From assembly GCF_003790525.1 (NCBI RefSeq), contig NZ_CP033635.1: DNA of 64,000 nt, one strand, 5' to 3'. Position 1 is the stretch's first letter. Every line of letters begins with the position of its first letter. The notes under the pieces were generated by a model. The model ran no database searches and was not told the origin of the DNA. It saw nothing but the letters and a program-made list of their open reading frames with translations. This document shows positions 5,180 to 16,954 of this stretch, one piece after another. The DNA is from Escherichia coli (lineage in GTDB: Bacteria > Pseudomonadota > Gammaproteobacteria > Enterobacterales > Enterobacteriaceae). Made by a program: the position numbers and the translations under genes.

Positions 5180-7228
5180 ATGAGTCGTAAACAACTGGCG
5201 CTATTCGAACCAACACTTGTCGTTCAGGCGCTGAAAGAAGCGGTGAAAAAATTAAACCCGCAGGCGCAATGGCGCAATCCGGTGATGTTTATCGTCTGGA
5301 TCGGCAGTCTGCTGACCACCTTTATTAGCATCGCAATGGCAAGCGGCGCGATGCCTGGCAATGCGCTGTTTAGCGCGGCAATTAGCGCATGGCTGTGGGT
5401 CACCGTACTGTTCGCTAATTTCGCCGAGGCGCTGGCTGAAGGCCGCAGTAAAGCGCAGGCCAACAGTCTGAAAGGTGTAAAAAAAACCGCCTTTGCCCGC
5501 AAGCTGCGTGAGCCGAAATATGGCGCTGCGGCGGACAAAGTACCTGCCGATCAACTGCGTAAAGGCGATATCGTACTGGTAGAAGCTGGCGATATTATCC
5601 CCTGCGATGGTGAAGTTATTGAAGGGGGGGCATCGGTCGATGAAAGCGCCATCACCGGGGAATCGGCACCGGTGATCCGTGAATCCGGCGGCGATTTTGC
5701 CTCCGTCACTGGCGGTACGCGTATTCTTTCTGACTGGCTGGTGATTGAGTGCAGCGTTAACCCCGGCGAGACATTTCTGGATCGGATGATCGCGATGGTG
5801 GAAGGCGCGCAGCGACGCAAAACGCCAAACGAGATTGCCCTGACCATTCTCCTGATTGCCCTGACTATCGTCTTTTTACTGGCAACCGCCACGCTGTGGC
5901 CGTTTTCCGCGTGGGGCGGTAATGCAGTCAGCGTAACGGTACTGGTGGCGCTGCTGGTCTGTCTGATCCCAACGACCATTGGCGGTCTGTTGTCAGCGAT
6001 CGGCGTCGCCGGGATGAGTCGGATGCTGGGCGCGAATGTGATTGCCACCAGCGGACGTGCAGTTGAAGCGGCAGGTGACGTTGACGTTCTGCTACTGGAT
6101 AAAACCGGCACCATCACACTTGGTAACCGTCAGGCGTCGGAGTTTATCCCTGCGCAGGGCGTGGATGAAAAAACGCTGGCTGACGCCGCACAACTGGCTT
6201 CGCTGGCTGATGAAACGCCGGAAGGCCGCAGTATTGTGATCCTCGCCAAGCAGCGTTTTAACCTGCGTGAGCGCGATGTGCAGTCGCTTCACGCCACCTT
6301 TGTACCGTTTACTGCGCAAAGCCGGATGAGCGGGATCAACATCGACAACCGCATGATCCGTAAAGGTTCTGTCGATGCCATTCGCCGCCATGTTGAGGCT
6401 AACGGCGGTCACTTCCCTGCCGACGTCGATCAAAAAGTCGATCAGGTTGCGCGTCAGGGAGCCACGCCGCTGGTGGTGGTGGAAGGTTCTCGTGTGCTGG
6501 GCGTTATTGCGCTGAAAGATATCGTCAAAGGCGGTATTAAAGAGCGCTTCGCCCAACTGCGCAAAATGGGCATTAAAACGGTGATGATTACCGGTGATAA
6601 CCGTCTGACTGCCGCCGCGATAGCTGCGGAAGCGGGTGTCGATGATTTTCTCGCCGAAGCGACACCGGAGGCCAAGCTGGCATTGATTCGTCAGTATCAG
6701 GCGGAAGGCCGTTTGGTGGCGATGACCGGCGACGGCACCAACGATGCTCCGGCGCTGGCGCAGGCAGATGTCGCGGTGGCGATGAACTCTGGTACTCAGG
6801 CGGCGAAAGAAGCGGGCAATATGGTGGATCTCGACTCCAACCCGACCAAGTTGATCGAGGTGGTACATATTGGCAAACAGATGCTGATGACCCGTGGCTC
6901 GCTGACCACCTTCAGCATTGCCAACGATGTGGCGAAATACTTCGCCATTATTCCGGCGGCGTTCGCGGCAACGTATCCGCAGTTAAATGCGCTGAACATC
7001 ATGCGCCTGCATTCGCCCGACTCCGCCATTCTCAGTGCGGTGATTTTCAACGCCTTGATTATCGTCTTTTTGATTCCCCTGGCGTTAAAAGGCGCGAGTT
7101 ATAAACCGCTTACCGCTTCTGCCATGTTGCGCCGTAACTTATGGATTTACGGTCTGGGTGGGCTGCTGGTGCCGTTTATTGGTATCAAAGTCATTGATTT
7201 ACTGCTAACCGTTTGCGGTCTGGTGTGA
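5180..7228 (+). CDS. kdpB: Kdp K+-transporting P-type ATPase subunit B
   Basis: 682 aa; P-type ATPase motifs [17 protein letters not shown]. Confidence 0.95.
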
Positions 7229-7236
7229 GGTTTACC

Positions 7237-7809
7237 ATGAGTGGATTACGTCCGGCATTATCGACATTTCTCTTTCTGTTATTGATTACTGGCGGCGTTT
7301 ACCCGCTGCTGACCACCGCGCTGGGGCAATGGTGGTTTCCCTGGCAGGCCAACGGTTCGTTGATTCGTGAAGGTGATACGGTGCGCGGTTCGGCATTGAT
7401 CGGGCAGAATTTTACTGGCAACGGCTATTTTCATGGTCGCCCGTCGGCAACGGCAGAAATGCCCTATAATCCACAGGCTTCTGGCGGGAGCAATCTGGCG
7501 GTCAGTAACCCTGAGCTGGATAAACTAATAGCCGCACGCGTTGCTGCATTACGGGCCGCTAACCCGGATGCCAGCGCGAGCGTTCCGGTTGAGCTGGTGA
7601 CGGCATCGGCAAGCGGGCTGGACAATAATATCACCCCGCAAGCGGCGGCATGGCAGATCCCACGCGTGGCGAAAGCGCGTAATCTCAGCGTTGAACAGCT
7701 CACGCAACTGATCGCAAAATACAGCCAACAACCGCTGGTGAACTATATCGGCCAGCCGGTCGTCAACATTGTCGAACTCAATCTGGCGCTGGATAAGCTT
7801 GATGAATAA
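7237..7809 (+). CDS. kdpC: Kdp ATPase subunit C
   Basis: 190 aa from ATG 7237 ([11 protein letters not shown]...); ORF-track start 7213 is an extension; overlaps kdpD start. Confidence 0.9.
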
Positions 7810-10486
7810 CGAACCCTTACGTCCCGACCCCGATCGTCTGCTGGAACAAACTGCCGCGCCGCATCGGGGGAAGCTGAAAGTTTTCTTCGGTGCCTGCGCA
7901 GGCGTCGGGAAGACCTGGGCGATGCTGGCAGAAGCCCAGCGACTGCGGGCGCAAGGGCTGGATATTGTGGTTGGCGTGGTAGAAACCCACGGGCGGAAAG
8001 ATACCGCCGCAATGCTGGAAGGGCTGGCTGTTCTGCCGTTAAAACGCCAGGCGTACCGTGGGCGGCACATCAGCGAGTTTGATCTCGATGCCGCCCTCGC
8101 CCGCCGTCCGGCACTGATCTTAATGGACGAACTGGCGCACAGTAATGCGCCAGGTTCTCGTCATCCCAAACGCTGGCAGGATATTGAAGAACTGCTGGAA
8201 GCTGGCATTGATGTTTTCACTACCGTCAACGTTCAGCATCTGGAAAGTCTGAATGATGTGGTCAGCGGCGTCACCGGAATTCAGGTACGGGAAACCGTGC
8301 CCGATCCTTTTTTTGATGCCGCCGACGACGTAGTACTGGTGGACTTGCCCCCGGACGATCTGCGCCAGCGACTGAAAGAAGGCAAAGTCTATATTGCCGG
8401 GCAGGCGGAGCGCGCCATTGAACATTTTTTTCGTAAAGGTAATCTGATCGCCCTGCGCGAACTGGCACTGCGCCGTACTGCCGATCGCGTTGATGAGCAA
8501 ATGCGCGCCTGGCGGGGGCATCCTGGCGAAGAGAAAGTCTGGCACACGCGCGACGCGATCCTTTTATGCATCGGGCATAACACCGGCAGCGAAAAACTGG
8601 TCCGCGCGGCGGCGCGGCTGGCGTCACGGCTGGGAAGCGTCTGGCACGCGGTGTATGTTGAAACCCCTGCCCTGCACCGCTTACCGGAGAAAAAACGTCG
8701 GGCAATTCTCAGCGCCTTACGTCTGGCGCAGGAGCTGGGCGCAGAGACGGCAACACTTTCTGATCCAGCGGAAGAGAAAGCGGTAGTGCGTTATGCCCGT
8801 GAACATAATCTCGGCAAGATTATTCTCGGTCGCCCAGCCTCGCGCCGCTGGTGGCGTCGGGAAACGTTTGCTGACCGACTGGCGCGAATCGCCCCCGATC
8901 TCGATCAGGTGCTGGTCGCGCTTGATGAACCACCCGCCCGCACGATAAACAACGCGCTGGATAGCCGCTCTTTTAAAGACAAGTGGCGGGTACAGATTCA
9001 GGGATGCGTGGTTGCCGCCGCGTTATGCGCCGTTATCACCTTAATTGCCATGCAGTGGCTGATGGCGTTTGATGCCGCCAACCTGGTGATGCTGTATCTG
9101 CTTGGCGTGGTGATGGTGGCGCTATTTTATGGACGCTGGCCTTCAGTGGTTGCCACCGTCATTAATGTGGTGAGTTTCGATCTCTTTTTTATCGCCCCAC
9201 GCGGCACGCTCGCCGTCTCTGATGTGCAATATCTACTGACCTTCGCGGTGATGTTAACCGTCGGGCTGGTGATCGGGAACCTTACTGCGGGCGTGCGTTA
9301 TCAGGCGCGGGTAGCCCGTTACCGCGAGCAACGCACACGGCACTTATATGAAATGTCGAAAGCTCTGGCTGTGGGCCGCAGTCCGCAGGACATCGCCGCC
9401 ACCAGCGAACAATTTATTGCCTCCACGTTTCATGCCCGCAGTCAGGTGCTGTTACCCGATGACAACGGTAAATTGCAGCCGTTAACACATCCGCAAGGAA
9501 TGACGCCGTGGGACGATGCCATCGCGCAGTGGAGTTTTGATAAAGGCCTGCCTGCGGGCGCGGGCACCGACACGTTACCCGGTGTACCGTACCAGATTTT
9601 GCCGCTAAAAAGCGGCGAGAAAACCTACGGACTGGTGGTGGTGGAACCGGGGAATCTGCGTCAATTGATGATCCCGGAACAGCAGCGCCTGCTGGAGACG
9701 TTTACGCTGTTAGTCGCCAATGCCCTTGAGCGGCTGACGCTGACCGCCAGCGAAGAACAGGCGCGGATGGCAAGCGAACGAGAACAGATCCGCAACGCCC
9801 TGCTGGCGGCACTTTCGCATGATTTACGCACGCCGCTTACGGTGCTGTTCGGTCAGGCAGAAATCTTAACGCTCGATCTGGCAAGCGAAGGATCGCCCCA
9901 CGCCCGCCAGGCCAGCGAGATTCGCCAGCATGTGCTGAACACGACCCGACTGGTGAATAATCTACTGGATATGGCGCGAATTCAGTCCGGCGGCTTTAAT
10001 TTGAAGAAAGAGTGGTTAACGCTGGAAGAAGTGGTCGGCAGCGCGCTGCAAATGCTGGAACCGGGTTTATCGTCGCCCATCAATCTTTCTCTGCCAGAAC
10101 CGCTGACCTTAATCCACGTTGACGGGCCACTGTTTGAACGGGTGCTGATTAATCTGCTGGAGAACGCGGTGAAATACGCGGGTGCGCAGGCCGAAATTGG
10201 TATCGATGCCCACGTTGAGGGCGAAAATCTACAACTGGATGTCTGGGATAATGGCCCCGGTCTTCCACCAGGCCAGGAGCAGACGATTTTCGATAAGTTT
10301 GCTCGTGGAAATAAAGAGTCGGCGGTGCCGGGGGTAGGGCTTGGGCTGGCAATTTGTCGGGCGATTGTGGATGTACACGGCGGCACCATTACCGCGTTCA
10401 ACCGACCGGAAGGTGGTGCCTGTTTTCGTGTTACACTTCCCCAGCAAACTGCCCCTGAACTTGAAGAATTTCATGAGGATATGTGA
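7802..10486 (+). CDS. kdpD: Sensor histidine kinase KdpD
   Basis: 894 aa from [13 protein letters not shown]; Walker-like [10 protein letters not shown]-domain, TM cluster, H-box [12 protein letters not shown]-binding G-boxes. Confidence 0.9.
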
Positions 10487-11160
10487 CAAACGTTCTGATT
10501 GTTGAAGATGAACAGGCTATTCGTCGCTTTCTGCGCACGGCGCTGGAGGGCGACGGGATGCGCGTCTTTGAGGCCGAAACGCTGCAACGCGGCTTGCTGG
10601 AAGCGGCAACCCGTAAGCCAGATTTGATTATTCTCGATCTCGGCCTGCCCGATGGTGATGGGATTGAGTTTATCCGCGACCTGCGCCAGTGGAGCGCGGT
10701 GCCGGTGATTGTGCTTTCCGCACGCAGCGAAGAGAGCGACAAAATCGCCGCACTGGATGCCGGAGCGGATGATTACCTGAGTAAGCCGTTTGGCATTGGC
10801 GAATTGCAGGCCCGTCTGCGCGTCGCTTTACGCCGCCACTCCGCCACCACCGCGCCCGATCCGCTGGTGAAATTTTCCGATGTGACCGTCGATTTAGCCG
10901 CCCGCGTGATTCACCGGGGTGAGGAAGAGGTGCATCTCACGCCGATTGAATTCCGCCTGCTGGCCGTGCTGCTCAACAACGCCGGAAAAGTGCTCACCCA
11001 GCGCCAGTTACTCAATCAGGTGTGGGGACCAAACGCGGTCGAACACAGTCATTATTTGCGTATTTATATGGGGCATCTGCGACAAAAACTGGAGCAAGAT
11101 CCCGCCCGCCCCCGCCATTTCATTACTGAAACCGGTATTGGGTATCGGTTTATGCTTTGA
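10483..11160 (+). CDS. kdpE: Response regulator KdpE (OmpR family)
   Basis: 225 aa; receiver domain DLIILDLGLPDGDG; winged-helix C-terminus; ATGA overlap with kdpD. Confidence 0.95.
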   Translation: MTNVLIVEDEQAIRRFLRTALEGDGMRVFEAETLQRGLLEAATRKPDLIILDLGLPDGDGIEFIRDLRQWSAVPVIVLSARSEESDKIAALDAGADDYLSKPFGIGELQARLRVALRRHSATTAPDPLVKFSDVTVDLAARVIHRGEEEVHLTPIEFRLLAVLLNNAGKVLTQRQLLNQVWGPNAVEHSHYLRIYMGHLRQKLEQDPARPRHFITETGIGYRFML

Positions 11161-11195
11161 ATATTAATTTTAATACATCCTGCCTTTTATTAATT

Positions 11196-11226
11196 AAAGC
11201 CGTAATAATAAATACGGCTTTTTATC
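11196..11226 (+). terminator. kdpE rho-independent terminator
   Basis: AGCCGTA-ataataaa-TACGGCT hairpin followed by TTTTTA. Confidence 0.65.
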
Positions 11227-11393
11227 TTAAACAACACACAAAAATAACAATTCAATATTTTATATTACTGAGTAAAAAGTTCATCATTAAATAAATTAAG
11301 ATTGATCATTTTTTATTGATCACCTTCACAGTTCAACAGTATTTCCTGGATAGAATACCTTCACCTTCATTCACATCAGGAAAGGTAAATTAA

Positions 11394-11498
11394 ATGGAAA
11401 ATAACAGCCGCACTATGCCCCATATAAGGCGGACAACTCATATTATGAAGTTTGCTCATCGCAATAGCTTCGACTTTCACTTCTTCAATGCCCGTTAG
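11394..11498 (+). CDS. speFL: SpeFL ornithine-sensing ribosome-arrest leader peptide (34 aa)
   Basis: ATG GAA AAT AAC AGC CGC... encodes MENNSRTMPHIRRTTHIMKFAHRNSFDFHFFNAR-stop, about 255 nt upstream of speF; below ORF-track size cutoff. Confidence 0.85.
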   Translation: MENNSRTMPHIRRTTHIMKFAHRNSFDFHFFNAR

Positions 11499-11755
11499 TC
11501 TACCGACTAAGGGCACTTCAGCGTACAGGTCTTCCTGACTCTCTGTATTACAGGCATATGCCTGTATTCCGCAGTGCTCATTCTCTGTTAACCCTTGTAT
11601 TATCAGCCACCGGACTGATAAGGGTTTCTGCATTCTGAAAAAAGCAAACTTCTGATTAATTTATCAGCGGGGTAACTTTGCTTTTTTTCCGGCACGATCG
11701 ATTTCTCATTCGAGAAATTGAGGACCTGCTATTACCAAAAATAAAGAGTTGGAAA

Positions 11756-13954
11756 ATGTCAAAATTAAAAATTGCGGTTAGTGATTCTTGCCCGGACTGT
11801 TTTACCACGCAGCGAGAATGTATCTATATTAATGAAAACAGTAATATCGATGTGGCGGCAATAGTTTTATCGCTCAACGATGTTACACGCGGAAAACTCG
11901 ATGAAATCGATGCCACGGGTTATGGCATCCCGGTATTTATTGCTACTGAAAATCAAGAACGTGTACCCGCAGAGTATTTGCCCCGTATTTCGGGTGTCTT
12001 TGAGAATTGCGAATCGCGACGAGAATTTTATGGTCGTCAGTTAGAAACCGCAGCCAGCCATTATGAAACTCAACTGCGCCCGCCCTTCTTCCGCGCACTG
12101 GTCGATTATGTCAATCAGGGTAACAGCGCGTTTAATTGCCCCGGTCATCAGGGCGGCGAATTTTTCCGTCGCCATCCGGCGGGGAATCAGTTTGTGGAAT
12201 ACTTTGGTGAGGCGCTGTTCCGTGCTGACTTGTGCAACGCGGATGTGGCAATGGGCGATCTGCTGATTCACGAAGGCGCGCCATGCATTGCACAGCAACA
12301 TGCGGCAAAAGTGTTTAATGCCGATAAAACATACTTCGTTCTAAATGGCACTTCATCTTCTAACAAAGTGGTTTTAAACGCCCTGTTAACACCGGGGGAT
12401 CTGGTGCTGTTTGACCGTAATAACCATAAATCTAATCACCACGGAGCGTTGCTACAGGCTGGCGCAACACCAGTTTATCTGGAAACCGCACGCAACCCGT
12501 ATGGCTTTATCGGTGGTATTGATGCCCACTGCTTCGAAGAAAATTACCTGCGCGAACTGATTACAGAAGTCGCACCGCAGCGGGCAAAAGAGGCGCGTCC
12601 TTTCCGCCTCGCCGTTATTCAGCTAGGCACTTACGACGGTACGATTTATAACGCCCGTCAGGTGGTGGATAAAATTGGTCATCTGTGTGACTACATCCTC
12701 TTTGACTCCGCATGGGTCGGCTATGAGCAGTTTATCCCGATGATGGCGGACTGTTCACCACTGTTGCTGGATCTTAATGAGAACGATCCGGGTATTCTGG
12801 TTACGCAATCTGTGCATAAACAGCAGGCTGGTTTTTCCCAGACTTCACAAATCCATAAAAAAGACAGCCATATCAAAGGGCAACAGCGTTATGTACCGCA
12901 CAAACGCATGAACAACGCCTTTATGATGCATGCCTCCACCAGCCCGTTCTATCCGCTGTTTGCCGCACTGGATATCAACGCCAAAATGCATGAAGGCGTC
13001 AGCGGTCGTAATATGTGGATGGATTGTGTGGTAAATGGCATTAATGCCCGCAAACTGATCCTCGATAACTGTCAGCATATTCGTCCATTCGTACCTGAAC
13101 TGGTGGATGGTAAACCCTGGCAGTCGTATGAAACAGCGCAAATTGCGGTTGATCTGCGCTTCTTCCAGTTTGTACCAGGTGAGCACTGGCATTCTTTTGA
13201 AGGCTATGCAGAGAATCAATACTTTGTCGATCCGTGCAAACTGTTGCTGACAACCCCAGGTATTGATGCACGTAACGGCGAATATGAAGCGTTCGGTGTA
13301 CCCGCGACGATTCTTGCTAACTTCCTGCGCGAAAATGGCGTAGTGCCGGAAAAATGCGATCTTAACTCCATCCTCTTTCTGCTGACTCCGGCAGAAGATA
13401 TGGCCAAACTTCAGCAACTTGCTGCTCTGCTGGTACGCTTCGAAAAACTGCTTGAGTCCGACGCGCCATTATCAGAAGTACTGCCTTCCATCTACAAACA
13501 GCATGAAGAGCGCTACACCGGTTATACCCTGCGTCAGTTGTGTCAGGAAATGCATGATTTGTATGCCCGTCACAACGTGAAACAACTGCAAAAAGAGATG
13601 TTTCGTAAGGAACACTTCCCACGTGTCAGCATGAATCCACAAGAAGCCAACTACGCCTATTTACGCGGTGAAGTGGAGCTGGTTCGTCTGCCGGATGCAG
13701 AAGGCCGTATCGCTGCAGAAGGTGCGCTTCCTTATCCTCCGGGAGTGCTGTGTGTTGTTCCGGGTGAAATCTGGGGTGGTGCTGTTCTGCGTTACTTCAG
13801 CGCTCTGGAAGAAGGGATCAACCTGCTGCCAGGTTTTGCACCGGAGCTTCAGGGTGTCTATATCGAAGAACATGATGGTCGTAAGCAAGTTTGGTGCTAT
13901 GTCATCAAGCCTCGTGGTGCGCAAAGCACCCTGCTGAAAGGGGAAAAATTATGA
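11756..13954 (+). CDS. speF: Inducible ornithine decarboxylase (PLP-dependent)
   Basis: 732 aa from MSKLKIAVSDS; Orn/Lys/Arg decarboxylase fold; ORF-track start 11678 is an extension; stop overlaps potE start. Confidence 0.95.
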   Translation: MSKLKIAVSDSCPDCFTTQRECIYINENSNIDVAAIVLSLNDVTRGKLDEIDATGYGIPVFIATENQERVPAEYLPRISGVFENCESRREFYGRQLETAASHYETQLRPPFFRALVDYVNQGNSAFNCPGHQGGEFFRRHPAGNQFVEYFGEALFRADLCNADVAMGDLLIHEGAPCIAQQHAAKVFNADKTYFVLNGTSSSNKVVLNALLTPGDLVLFDRNNHKSNHHGALLQAGATPVYLETARNPYGFIGGIDAHCFEENYLRELITEVAPQRAKEARPFRLAVIQLGTYDGTIYNARQVVDKIGHLCDYILFDSAWVGYEQFIPMMADCSPLLLDLNENDPGILVTQSVHKQQAGFSQTSQIHKKDSHIKGQQRYVPHKRMNNAFMMHASTSPFYPLFAALDINAKMHEGVSGRNMWMDCVVNGINARKLILDNCQHIRPFVPELVDGKPWQSYETAQIAVDLRFFQFVPGEHWHSFEGYAENQYFVDPCKLLLTTPGIDARNGEYEAFGVPATILANFLRENGVVPEKCDLNSILFLLTPAEDMAKLQQLAALLVRFEKLLESDAPLSEVLPSIYKQHEERYTGYTLRQLCQEMHDLYARHNVKQLQKEMFRKEHFPRVSMNPQEANYAYLRGEVELVRLPDAEGRIAAEGALPYPPGVLCVVPGEIWGGAVLRYFSALEEGINLLPGFAPELQGVYIEEHDGRKQVWCYVIKPRGAQSTLLKGEKL

Positions 13955-15270
13955 GTCAGGCTAAATCGAACAAGATGGGCGTCGTTCAGTTAACCATACT
14001 GACGATGGTCAACATGATGGGCTCCGGTATCATCATGCTGCCGACAAAGCTTGCCGAAGTTGGGACAATCTCAATTATCTCCTGGCTGGTGACAGCCGTA
14101 GGCTCAATGGCACTGGCGTGGGCATTCGCAAAATGCGGTATGTTCAGCCGTAAGGCAGGTGGTATGGGCGGTTATGCGGAGTATGCTTTCGGTAAATCCG
14201 GTAACTTTATGGCGAACTACACCTACGGTGTCTCGCTGCTGATTGCTAACGTCGCGATTGCTATTTCGGCGGTTGGTTACGGCACCGAACTGCTCGGCGC
14301 GAGTTTGTCGCCAGTGCAGATTGGTCTTGCGACCATCGGGGTGCTGTGGATTTGTACCGTGGCTAACTTCGGTGGTGCGCGCATTACCGGGCAAATCAGT
14401 AGCATTACTGTGTGGGGGGTAATCATTCCGGTCGTCGGTCTGTGCATTATCGGCTGGTTCTGGTTTAGCCCGACGCTGTACGCTAACTCATGGAACCCTC
14501 ATCATGTACCGTTCTTTAGCGCTGTAGGTTCCTCCATCGCCATGACGTTGTGGGCTTTCCTCGGTCTGGAGTCTGCCTGTGCCAACGCCGAAGTAGTGGA
14601 AAACCCGGAACGTAACGTGCCAATAGCAGTCCTTGGCGGTACGTTAGGTGCGGCAGTGATTTATATCGTCTCCACCAACGTGATTGCCGGGATTGTGCCC
14701 AATATGGAGCTGGCAAATTCAACGGCACCATTTGGCCTGGCCTTCGCACAGATGTTCACACCAGAAGTGGGTAAAGTCATTATGGCGCTGATGGTGATGT
14801 CCTGCTGCGGTTCACTGCTTGGCTGGCAGTTCACCATTGCCCAGGTGTTTAAATCTTCATCTGATGAAGGCTACTTCCCTAAAATTTTCTCCCGTGTAAC
14901 CAAAGTGGATGCACCGGTTCAGGGAATGTTGATCATTGTGATTATTCAGAGTGGATTGGCACTGATGACCATTAGCCCGTCACTGAACAGCCAGTTCAAC
15001 GTGCTGGTTAACCTGGCCGTGGTGACCAATATCATCCCGTATATTCTGTCGATGGCAGCATTAGTTATTATTCAGCAGGTCGCCAATGTGCCACCGTCAA
15101 AAGCGAAAGTAGCAAACTTTGTTGCCTTTGTTGGTGCGATGTACAGTTTCTATGCGCTGTACTCATCCGGGGAAGAAGCCATGCTGTACGGTTCCATCGT
15201 GACCTTCCTTGGTTGGACACTGTATGGTCTGGTATCTCCACGCTTTGAACTGAAAAATAAACACGGTTAA
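13951..15270 (+). CDS. potE: Putrescine:ornithine antiporter
   Basis: 439 aa from MSQAKSNKMGVVQLT; APC-family transporter; ATGA overlap with speF. Confidence 0.95.
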   Translation: MSQAKSNKMGVVQLTILTMVNMMGSGIIMLPTKLAEVGTISIISWLVTAVGSMALAWAFAKCGMFSRKAGGMGGYAEYAFGKSGNFMANYTYGVSLLIANVAIAISAVGYGTELLGASLSPVQIGLATIGVLWICTVANFGGARITGQISSITVWGVIIPVVGLCIIGWFWFSPTLYANSWNPHHVPFFSAVGSSIAMTLWAFLGLESACANAEVVENPERNVPIAVLGGTLGAAVIYIVSTNVIAGIVPNMELANSTAPFGLAFAQMFTPEVGKVIMALMVMSCCGSLLGWQFTIAQVFKSSSDEGYFPKIFSRVTKVDAPVQGMLIIVIIQSGLALMTISPSLNSQFNVLVNLAVVTNIIPYILSMAALVIIQQVANVPPSKAKVANFVAFVGAMYSFYALYSSGEEAMLYGSIVTFLGWTLYGLVSPRFELKNKHG

Positions 15271-15284
15271 AAAAAGCGAAATAA

Positions 15285-15318
15285 AAAAGGGCGATTGAAT
15301 GATCGCCCTTTCTGTTTG
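15285..15318 (+). terminator. potE rho-independent terminator
   Basis: GGGCGAT-tgaa-TGATCGCCC hairpin followed by TTTCTGTTTGTT. Confidence 0.65.
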
Positions 15319-15354
15319 TTGACAAAGAGTTCGTTATTTATGCCGCATCCGGCA

Positions 15355-15496
15355 GGTGTAGGGTCCAAACGCGGTCGAACACAGCAACTATTTGCGTAAT
15401 TATATGAGGCATTTGCGACAAAAACTGGAACAGGATCTCGTCCGCCCCGCCATTTCATTACTGAAACCGGTATTGGGTATCGGTTTATGCTTTGAA
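15355..15496 (+). repeat. Decayed duplicate of the 3' end of kdpE (direct repeat of 11019..11161, about 90% identity)
   Basis: Read by eye: ...CCAAACGCGGTCGAACACAG...GCGACAAAAACTGG...CCGCCATTTCATTACTGAAACCGGTATTGGGTATCGGTTTATGCTTTGAA present at both loci; copy B has an early stop in the kdpE frame; preceded by a partial REP (TGCCGCATCCGGCA). Confidence 0.85.
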
Positions 15497-15618
15497 AAAA
15501 GTGGCAATGTATGGATAAAGTCATTTTTTATTCAAATATAAGGAACTTAATATTTAAAAAATGTCCCATACAATGCCTCATCATAAATGACACCGTAGCA
15601 CACAAGGAGCAAGTAGCG

Positions 15619-16269
15619 ATGCGTGAAGTGAGTCAGTTAGTAAATACTGAAGATTCAGCCTGGCCAATAATCCAGAATTGGTTAAAAGAAGCCACAAACC
15701 ATGCCGAACTCTTACCGGTTAATAAAGATTTAGCCGAAACCGCACTTTATCAATTACAGGTTACAACAAAATCACCGATGGGTGCGCTTGTCTATGGCTC
15801 CGGAGGTCTGCTGATTGATAACGGTTGGTTACGCATAGCAGGCTCTGGTCACCCCCGGTTACCACGAGATCCAGCAAGTTGGACACAACGCCCTGAATTC
15901 GCAAGCGTGCGGGCTTTACCCATCGCCGATGATGTCGCAGGGGGAATTTTTGCTCTTAATGGTGGCGATCTTGGGGAAGATACTGGCTGCGTTTATTATT
16001 TTGCGCCAGATACGCTGAATTGGGAAAGTCTGGAGGTTGGATATTCTGAGTTTCTTCAGTGGGCATTATCCGGTGATTTAGATACCTTCTATGAAAATGT
16101 ACGCTGGCCGCAATGGCAAGAAGACGTAATAAAATTATCGGCAACGGAAGCCTTCACTTTCTACCCTTTCTTATGGGTACAATGTGAAGAAGCAAGAACA
16201 AGAAAAGTTATTTCGCTTACTGAACTCTGGGAAATGCAGTATCAAATGAAAGAAACAATCACGCAATAA
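15619..16269 (+). CDS. ybfG: Uncharacterized protein YbfG-like (possibly DUF2625)
   Basis: ORF 15511..16269; start chosen at ATG 15619 preceded by AAGGAG; start uncertain; AT-rich gene. Confidence 0.6.
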   Translation: MREVSQLVNTEDSAWPIIQNWLKEATNHAELLPVNKDLAETALYQLQVTTKSPMGALVYGSGGLLIDNGWLRIAGSGHPRLPRDPASWTQRPEFASVRALPIADDVAGGIFALNGGDLGEDTGCVYYFAPDTLNWESLEVGYSEFLQWALSGDLDTFYENVRWPQWQEDVIKLSATEAFTFYPFLWVQCEEARTRKVISLTELWEMQYQMKETITQ

Positions 16270-16309: not shown

Positions 16310-16804
16310 TTAATGTGTGTTTATCGCTTTCAATTCTTGCTGGCAATTTTCTGACTGACAGCGTCGCAACTCAATAATCCCTACATGCATCATCGAGCCA
16401 AAAAATCCGCTTTCGCTGACATAATCCTCATTAACTAGCGGTCGAGTGCCGGGCTTACCCTGGCAAATCCCCATAAAAAATGAGGTGTAGCATTGCCATT
16501 CAGGATTTAAACCGGTCTTTTCTTGTGCTGACATATCATGAAGATAAGTAAGTTCTTTTTCGTTCCCGCCTGACAACTGCCAGCGGCGGGTATTATCAGG
16601 TAAGTTATCGCCACGGCAATTTGTCTTACACCGGGAAGGCGCAATATTTACCGTAATGCTCCCCGTTAATCCTCTGGTTTTATCTTTAGGGGTCAGTAAC
16701 CAGTCACCAGCTAATGATGATTGTTCAGGTTGGGCGCATGCTGTCAGCAGTAGTGTGGCGGTAATTAATGCCACTCTGACGACCAGACTCCTTTTGGTCT
16801 TCAT
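16310..16804 (-). CDS. ybfP: Uncharacterized lipoprotein YbfP
   Basis: 164 aa from MKTKRSLVVRVALITATLLLTAC (signal peptide plus lipobox LTAC); ORF-track extension to 16855 is an upstream in-frame start. Confidence 0.8.
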   Translation of the reverse strand: MKTKRSLVVRVALITATLLLTACAQPEQSSLAGDWLLTPKDKTRGLTGSITVNIAPSRCKTNCRGDNLPDNTRRWQLSGGNEKELTYLHDMSAQEKTGLNPEWQCYTSFFMGICQGKPGTRPLVNEDYVSESGFFGSMMHVGIIELRRCQSENCQQELKAINTH

Positions 16805-16854
16805 TTTGAATTCCCTTGAGCTATTCAGTTTGTTGGCAAAGTGCTCGTTGTTCA

Positions 16855-16954
16855 TGCCGGATGCGGCGTGAACGTCTTATCCGGCCTACAAAATCGCGTA
16901 AATTCAATATATTGCACCATCTTCCCAAGCCTGATAAGCGTAGCGCATCAGGCA
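16855..16954. repeat. REP elements (BIME-like pair) between ybfP and pgm
   Basis: GCCGGATGCGGCGTGAACGTCTTATCCGGCCTAC and GCCTGATAAGCGTAGCGCATCAGGC, typical REP palindromes. Confidence 0.7.

Follow-up and report, generated by a model that had tools for sequence, protein, structure and literature searches.

A conserved CRP-type operator predicted at the class II position of the speFL-speF-potE promoter in Enterobacterales

Background

Much is known about how speF is controlled through its leader peptide (SpeFL, or orf34), together with ornithine, Rho and RNase G. Class II CRP promoters, such as galP1 and the synthetic CC(-41.5), carry a site of the TGTGA-N6-TCACA type about 41 bp 5' of the transcription start, over a poor -35 region, and in galP1 one of the two half-sites is good and the other imperfect. 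FNR sites (TTGAT-N4-ATCAA) are usually found at the same position, -41.5, and the bases that discriminate between the two factors are G/C for CRP (GTGA...TCAC) and T/A for FNR (TTGA...TCAA). In another group of loci, namely pap (Lrp), agn43, gtr and opvAB (OxyR), and std (HdfR), two close GATCs in the regulatory region 5' of the promoter fall in alternative sites of a methylation-sensitive factor and give rise to bistability. Wang and Church reportedly found in 1992 that the GATC-containing CRP sites of E. coli mtlA, srlA/gut, cdd and ppiA are protected from Dam. The consensus sequences of both CRP and FNR are known to contain GATC (PMC5155068), and GATC-containing CRP sites cause undermethylation, for example at nanA and dgoR in Salmonella (PMC7708049).

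Here we present an analysis of the speFL promoter in a 64-kb window, by which we mean the whole stretch of E. coli DNA that was analysed. An earlier note on this DNA had drawn attention to a short tandem motif with two Dam sites upstream of speF. We propose that half of this motif belongs to an operator conserved well beyond E. coli, and that CRP is the protein most likely to bind it.

Gene map and alleles of the speFL promoter region

The window carries kdpD (7769-10486), kdpE (10483-11160), the leader peptide gene speFL (11394-11498, plus strand), speF, which codes for the inducible ornithine decarboxylase (11756-13954, plus strand), and potE, which codes for the putrescine-ornithine antiporter (13951-15270, plus strand). 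The two kdp genes were placed by the list of open reading frames and the annotation of homologous E. coli records, potE by that list and the annotation of homologous loci, and speFL, with its product of 34 aa (MENNSRTMPHIRRTTHIMKFAHRNSFDFHFFNAR), by the list and the RefSeq annotation of identical DNA. The spacer between kdpE and speFL measures 233 nt and holds the kdpE intrinsic terminator (11196-11221, plus strand), a terminator-like stem-loop followed by a T run, which forms the 5' limit of the speFL promoter region. The motif lies 3' of this terminator at 11301-11322 on the plus strand and reads ATTGATCA-TTTTTT-ATTGATCA (in full ATTGATCATTTTTTATTGATCA), so that the sequence, the coordinates and the placement in the speFL-speF-potE promoter region given by the earlier note all stand. 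Its GATCs, at 11304-11307 and 11318-11321, have a 14-bp period (GATC-N10-GATC), and about 71-72 nt lie between its end at 11322 and the speFL ATG at 11394, the latter being preceded by a Shine-Dalgarno sequence, as read, of AGGAAAGG (11378-11385, plus strand). In this region the window is 100% identical to E. coli SMS-3-5, and K-12 has the same motif, with the GATCs at MG1655 720895-720898 and 720909-720912. An Rfam search of 11100-11900 at E<=1 gave no match, i.e. no known RNA element over the motif.

The repetition of the 8-mer is not in itself remarkable: the window has 4 copies of ATTGATCA where 3.0 would be expected, and direct repeats of exact 8-mers separated by <=10 nt are found at 30 of its positions, compared with about 11 in shuffles of matched composition. 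We rejected the reading of the motif as a tandem repeat, because such repeats are common in the window and the identity of the two 8-mers is specific to the K-12-type allele described below; where the earlier note saw tandem ATTGATCA motifs, the other E. coli allele has TATGATCG and GTTGATCT. The two copies are thus not a functional tandem unit. As a separate observation, GATC pairs 4-16 nt apart number 23 in the whole window against 11.6 in dinucleotide-preserving shuffles (1 of 100 shuffles reaches 23), and most of the close pairs are intragenic.

What exceeds chance here is conservation, not repetition. E. coli has two divergent alleles of the spacer, the leader and the 5' end of speF, a K-12-type, which is that of the window, in about 1700 of 5426 complete genomes and an O157-type in about 3300, with 73-77% identity between them in this region. 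From the distal TGATC onwards (window 11303, or 143 in the query) the alleles show detectable homology, which continues in a common block of the form TGATC-n-TTTTTT-n-TTGATC-nn-CTTCACAG, a variable stretch, and ATTTC-n-TGGATAGAATA. Of the 1695 K-12-type genomes, 1678 share an identical 44-mer around the motif; its O157-type counterpart is present in 3295 genomes, and the skeleton TGATC-N9-TGATC survives in the O157-type allele as well as in many genera. Conservation in relatives, which the earlier note had asked about, was hence borne out.

The alleles differ over window positions of about 11100-12100 (compared with 5760-6860 of the O157-type locus L003), a tract that runs from the 3' end of kdpE through the spacer, speFL and the leader into speF, of which it takes in the first ~350 nt. 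Identity in 200-nt windows falls to 49-85% within this tract against 97-99% in its flanks, and the two alleles have leaders of 258 and 310 nt between speFL and speF; the divergence looks like an old recombinational replacement. The 3' end of kdpE (11017-11161) recurs in the window as a 145-bp direct copy of 91% identity at 15353-15496, just 3' of potE, so that copies of the kdpE 3' end stand on both sides of the speFL-speF-potE block (about 11162-15352). In the O157-type arrangement potE adjoins pgm, and both the repeat and a 1.65-kb stretch, which in the window comes after potE and contains two open reading frames (15511-16269 and 16310-16855), are missing. These features suggest that recombination inserted the operon into the K-12-type lineage or restored it there. 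In E. coli KL53 (L002, 3001-3800), IS1 directly follows kdpE and speFL-speF-potE is missing; about 430 of the 5426 genomes match neither promoter allele, and loss of the operon may be fairly common.

Two points of annotation concern the same region. In O157-type genomes, RefSeq has a gene for a 44-aa 'hypothetical protein' that overlaps the speFL promoter and the first part of speFL (5981-6115 of L003, with counterparts in L004 and L005); it is labelled 'TonB-dependent receptor' in one genome, and is very probably a spurious gene call. The record NZ_CP026085.1, labelled E. coli DH5alpha, has the O157-type promoter allele, whereas K-12 strains have the other, and may be mislabelled or not derived from K-12.

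Promoter architecture and a conserved palindrome

Primer extension in Salmonella has mapped a single start, which puts the ATG of orf34 (= speFL) at +32 (PMC6386406) and agrees with the position of a conserved -10 hexamer. The hexamer of the window, TAGAAT (11351-11356, plus strand), is of the TAnnAT type found at a fixed distance in all taxa, the commonest forms being TAAAAT (30), TAGAAT (6) and TACAAT (5). Its distance to the speFL ATG is 37 nt, the same as in S. enterica subsp. arizonae. Given the Salmonella ATG at +32 and this equal distance from the -10 hexamer, we infer that transcription in E. coli starts at about 11363 (an A, plus strand), 31 nt 5' of the speFL ATG. The motif would then span about -62 to -41, with the start downstream of it, rather than upstream as in the refuting case that the earlier note had envisaged. 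Neither the eLife 3'-end mapping data nor the Cappable-seq data, the latter looked up in both genome coordinate versions, yielded the E. coli speF start.

A consensus scan of 11100-11800 returned no passing pair of sigma-70 -35 and -10 elements, and the sequence 17 bp 5' of TAGAAT is a poor match to TTGACA, as of a weak or absent -35. Since no pair passes the scan, the promoter looks activator-dependent; we read the missing pair as a sign of such dependence and not as absence of a promoter.

For the comparison across genera, 80 speF loci were taken from species-representative genomes with a SpeF query, and speFL was located by script in 46 Enterobacterales loci. The 150 nt 5' of each speFL start were compared, the counts given here covering about 48 Enterobacterales upstream regions, and each region was subjected to a weighted scan for TGTGA-N6-TCACA. 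In every taxon the best CRP-like 16-mer falls at the position homologous to 11315-11330 of the window. It is a palindrome of the form (G/T)TGA-N6-TCAC, which in the window has the strand-neutral 16-bp core ATTGA-TCACCT-TCACA, centred between 11322 and 11323. The proximal ATTGATCA (11315-11322), with the GATC at 11318-11321, constitutes its left half. The proximal copy, which the earlier note framed as one of a tandem pair, is thus better explained as half of a palindrome that reaches 11330, beyond the 3' end of the repeat.

The site sequences are ATTGATCACCTTCACA in E. coli and GTTGATCCGGTTCACA in Salmonella, while Enterobacter (GGTGATCTGATTCACA), Hafnia (AGTGATAAATATCACG), Serratia (CGTGACTAACGTCACA) and Yersinia (CGTGACTTAAGTCACA) have near-consensus CRP sites; the corresponding site of Proteus is TTTGATCTATATCACA. 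Of the 48 taxa, 46 have TCAC as the right half. At the left, TTGA is found in 24, GTGA in 20 and ATGA in 2, so that 44 of 48 have GTGA or TTGA. Within the 26 core Enterobacteriaceae, TGAT and TCAC are invariant (TGA 26/26, TCAC 26/26). The central N6 and the stretch from the site to the -10 hexamer vary freely, with an information content of 0.1-0.8 bit. At the positions flanking the half-sites, changes on one side are mirrored on the other (T..A in 11 taxa, C..G in 7), which is what binding by a symmetric dimer would lead one to expect. The distance from the palindrome centre to the start of the -10 hexamer is 28 nt (28.5 bp) in every one of the about 48 taxa, hence also in Yersinia, despite the differing length of its 5' UTR. 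If the hexamer is taken as -12 to -7, the centre lies at -40.5, one base from the canonical -41.5; the Salmonella-mapped start puts it at -40.5/-41.5, the class II position, with the E. coli start placed by homology as above. Invariant or nearly invariant half-sites around a free centre are the pattern of a protein footprint, here that of a candidate operator of the CRP/FNR family at the class II position.

Outside the Enterobacterales, Shewanella (L057, L058) has a speFL-like leader (MKRKSKIMAHIRRTRHIMMP...) and a palindrome, TATGACTTGGCTCATA, about 75-90 nt 5' of the speFL-like open reading frame and about 27 nt 5' of TATAAA. The geometry is that of the Enterobacterales, but the half-sites are ATGA and TCAT.

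CRP as the probable ligand of the operator

We posit that the palindrome serves as a class II CRP-type operator of speFL-speF-potE, with cAMP-CRP as its probable ligand, and that the speF promoter is probably a hitherto undocumented CRP target. The sequence itself, its spacing to the -10 hexamer and its conservation are direct observations, from which we infer both the identity of the bound protein and activation by it. In E. coli, ATTGA-TCACCT-TCACA matches 8/10 CRP core positions (right half 5/5, left half 3/5), and the orthologous sites up to 9/10. The two-fold symmetry of TGTGA-N6-TCACA is present, imperfectly so in E. coli, where the left half is TTGA, not GTGA, and is without the G that is read by CRP. 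The window holds about 12 equally good CRP-like sites and 38 FNR-like 14-mers of quality equal to the FNR match; the E. coli sequence alone is therefore not diagnostic.

The nearest competitor is FNR itself, with the palindrome acting as a TTGAT-N4-ATCAA site at about -41.5 that would mediate the anaerobic part of speF induction, and the proximal ATTGATCA being a perfect FNR half-site. The left half is indeed TTGAT in 24 of the 48 taxa, including E. coli, Citrobacter, Salmonella, Kluyvera and Proteus, and the E. coli site agrees with FNR at 8/10 core positions (left 5/5, right, TTCAC, 3/5), as many as with CRP. The position is the one usual for FNR, and the Orn system has been described as activated anaerobically at pH 5 (PMC11434309). 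Across the taxa, however, the right half is of the CRP type in the same 46 of 48, and TCAA in none, while the left half is also of the CRP type, GTGA, in 20 taxa against the 24, E. coli among them, where it is of the FNR type. The abundance of equally good FNR-like 14-mers in the window likewise weakens this reading. The 15 supplementary files of an E. coli FNR ChIP-seq study (PMC3688515) mention none of speF, potE and kdpE, a weak point in that the study used glucose minimal medium and the files are possibly incomplete. We hence rank CRP as the most likely protein and consider FNR an improbable one, though FNR or ArcA may have some input.

A Proteus mirabilis crp mutant has lost ornithine decarboxylase activity (PMC5544767, where this is given as data not shown). 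The searchable literature, which does not extend to RegulonDB, EcoCyc and the ChIP data sets, yielded neither CRP binding to nor crp-dependence of speF, no direct connection of the gene with cAMP or FNR, and no published transcription-factor site for its promoter other than weak NtrC binding.

Under the proposed CRP mechanism, the proximal copy at 11315-11322 would be the upstream half-site of the two-fold symmetric operator ATTGA-N6-TCACA (11315-11330). A dimer bound at -40.5/-41.5 would overlap and replace the poor -35 region and recruit RNA polymerase, as in class II activation, and the distal TGATC together with the T6 tract (about -62 to -49) would be the region where the C-terminal domain of the RNA polymerase alpha subunit docks. 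Catabolite control of speFL-speF-potE would thereby be added to the known control by ornithine, Rho and mRNA decay via speFL, and the proximal GATC would be a by-product of the CRP consensus (TGTGATC).

The GATC pair and the distal element

The proximal GATC lies inside the CRP-type site and the distal one 14 bp further 5', so that the pair does sit at regulator sites near a promoter. Constraint on GATC itself, as distinct from the overlapping motif, is not what we find, its retention within the core Enterobacteriaceae being partial. The proximal GATC is gone wherever the half-site is GTGATA, GTGACC, GTGACT or TTGATG, and the palindrome and the -10 hexamer stay. In the left-half GATC, 24-26 of the 26 core taxa retain the TC (C at -2 in 24/26), as against the mirror G at +1 in only 1/26, an excess that CRP alone does not explain.

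Further upstream, the distal ATTGATCA (11301-11308, plus strand; about -62 to -55, its GATC about -59 to -56) is conserved only in its TGATC core. Of the 26 core Enterobacteriaceae, 22-24 keep this pentamer, while positions -15 and -14 are variable. The pentamer is missing from E. albertii (AATC), the Escherichia lineage L007 (GATT), Cedecea and Serratia (CCCGC-like), Hafnia and Yersinia. Between the two copies runs the T6 tract (11309-11314, plus strand; about -54 to -49), an A/T-rich 5' flank of the CRP-type site with T in 17-23 of the 26 core taxa per position. The conservation of the distal TGATC, which like that of the T6 tract is confined to the core Enterobacteriaceae, is likewise not explained by the CRP site. 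This element lies about 17-19 bp 5' of the operator centre; in class II CRP promoters the alpha C-terminal domain docks at about this place.

These residues of conservation leave room for two further readings, neither of which we favour. The earlier note had raised the possibility of a methylation-sensitive regulator, and the paired GATCs might accordingly be viewed as an element, sensitive to Dam methylation or bound by SeqA, that modulates the speF promoter, either because methylation alters binding or because a bound regulator blocks methylation and thereby sets up heritable ON and OFF states. The two divergent E. coli alleles retain both GATCs at their 14-bp period, as do 21 of the 48 taxa. 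Their presence is correlated (both in 21 taxa, neither in 18, only one in 9), but this correlation is confounded by phylogeny. The left-half TC is conserved beyond what CRP symmetry requires, and CRP-bound GATCs lead to Dam-dependent heterogeneity at Salmonella nanA and dgoR (PMC7708049). Against these points, GATC is lost at >=1 of the positions in E. albertii, Escherichia lineage L007, Cedecea, Serratia, Hafnia, Buttiauxella and Yersinia, with the palindrome and the -10 hexamer persisting, and the distal TGATC is conserved no better than the neighbouring upstream blocks or the T-tract. Moreover, the 14-bp spacing sets the two GATCs about 120 degrees apart on the helix, speF / STM0701 is absent from the supplements of the Salmonella study of undermethylated GATCs, and the literature searched held no link between speF and Dam, nor any case of Dam or SeqA control of speF. 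We therefore regard a methylation-sensitive element as quite unlikely. Its most elaborate form, in which CRP blocks methylation of the pair and methylation feeds back on occupancy to give a bistable, heritable ON/OFF switch in the core Enterobacteriaceae, as at nanA/dgoR, strikes us as more remote still.

The other reading assigns the distal TGATC and the T-tract, possibly with the upstream boxes of other genera described below, to a second regulator, such as a pH-responsive factor or ArcA, acting with the class II activator. The retention of the TGATC in 22-24 of 26 core taxa would fit this, as would the fact that homology between the two E. coli alleles starts exactly there; ArcA activates speF-potE in Haemophilus influenzae (PMC1974803), and the literature searched assigns no regulator to the acid and anaerobic induction of speF. 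On the other hand, many genera lack the element although the rest of their promoter is kept, it lies where non-specific docking of the alpha C-terminal domain is expected anyway, and, as judged by eye, it matches none of IHF, Fis, OxyR, LysR T-N11-A, ArcA and ArgR. A second regulator at this place is, in our estimate, doubtful, about as improbable as FNR at the palindrome.

None of the candidates compared by eye with the distal TGATC fits it: these were IHF (WATCAANNNNTTR), Fis, OxyR-type GATC-N9-GATC units, the LysR-type T-N11-A (here T-N12-A), a further CRP site in the distal register, and the boxes of KdpE, ArcA and ArgR. An UP element was also considered; the T6 tract matches the distal UP subsite at 8/11 positions, but would be covered by any protein at -41.5. 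Separately, many Enterobacteriaceae (e.g. L012, L015, L020 and L029) have two more conserved boxes 20-55 nt 5' of the palindrome centre, upstream of the distal GATC. Box 1 is CGACTAATTATTTCTGAAAT, or TGAATAATTATTTAT in Serratia, and resembles an ARG box or Fur box; box 2 is ATATGCATAA. Both are missing from the K-12-type allele of the window. The seqA gene, whose product binds hemimethylated GATC, lies two genes 3' of potE in the order potE, pgm, seqA (L003, 11746-12100); this is a coincidence of map position and lends no support to the Dam/SeqA idea.

Comparison with known systems

The speF element is real, conserved and regulatory, and of an ordinary kind. A conserved CRP-type class II operator extending from Escherichia to Yersinia, Proteus and Hafnia yields the testable prediction that the inducible ornithine decarboxylase is under catabolite control; such an operator would explain the ornithine-decarboxylase-negative crp mutant of Proteus, and it accounts for a GATC pair that might otherwise be mistaken for an epigenetic element. 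As a CRP target, speF would be an incremental addition to a very large known regulon, without a new mechanism.

Its closest counterparts are galP1 and CC(-41.5), with which it shares the position of the site about 41 bp 5' of the start over a poor -35 region, and in the case of galP1 also the pairing of one good half-site (TCACA in speF) with an imperfect one. The speF site differs from them in that it is predicted, has TTGA as its left half in E. coli, and is centred at -40.5 by inference, if the -10 hexamer is at -12 to -7. Like nanA and dgoR of Salmonella (PMC7708049), and like the E. coli sites named above, it has a GATC within the TGTGATC half of a promoter CRP-type site; in contrast to the CRP sites protected from Dam, it is a predicted site and does not appear in the undermethylated lists that were checked. 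With the class II FNR sites it has in common the position and, in E. coli, a perfect TTGAT left half, but its right half, TCAC in 46/48 taxa, is never TCAA, and we found no FNR ChIP-seq record for it. Finally, it resembles pap, agn43, gtr, opvAB and std in having two close GATCs in the regulatory region 5' of the promoter. In those switches the GATCs belong to alternative sites of one methylation-sensitive factor, whereas at speF one of the two is explained by the CRP consensus, the GATC-N10-GATC arrangement does not fit the GATC-N9-GATC units of the OxyR type (PMC7708049), and the GATCs are dispensable in many genera.
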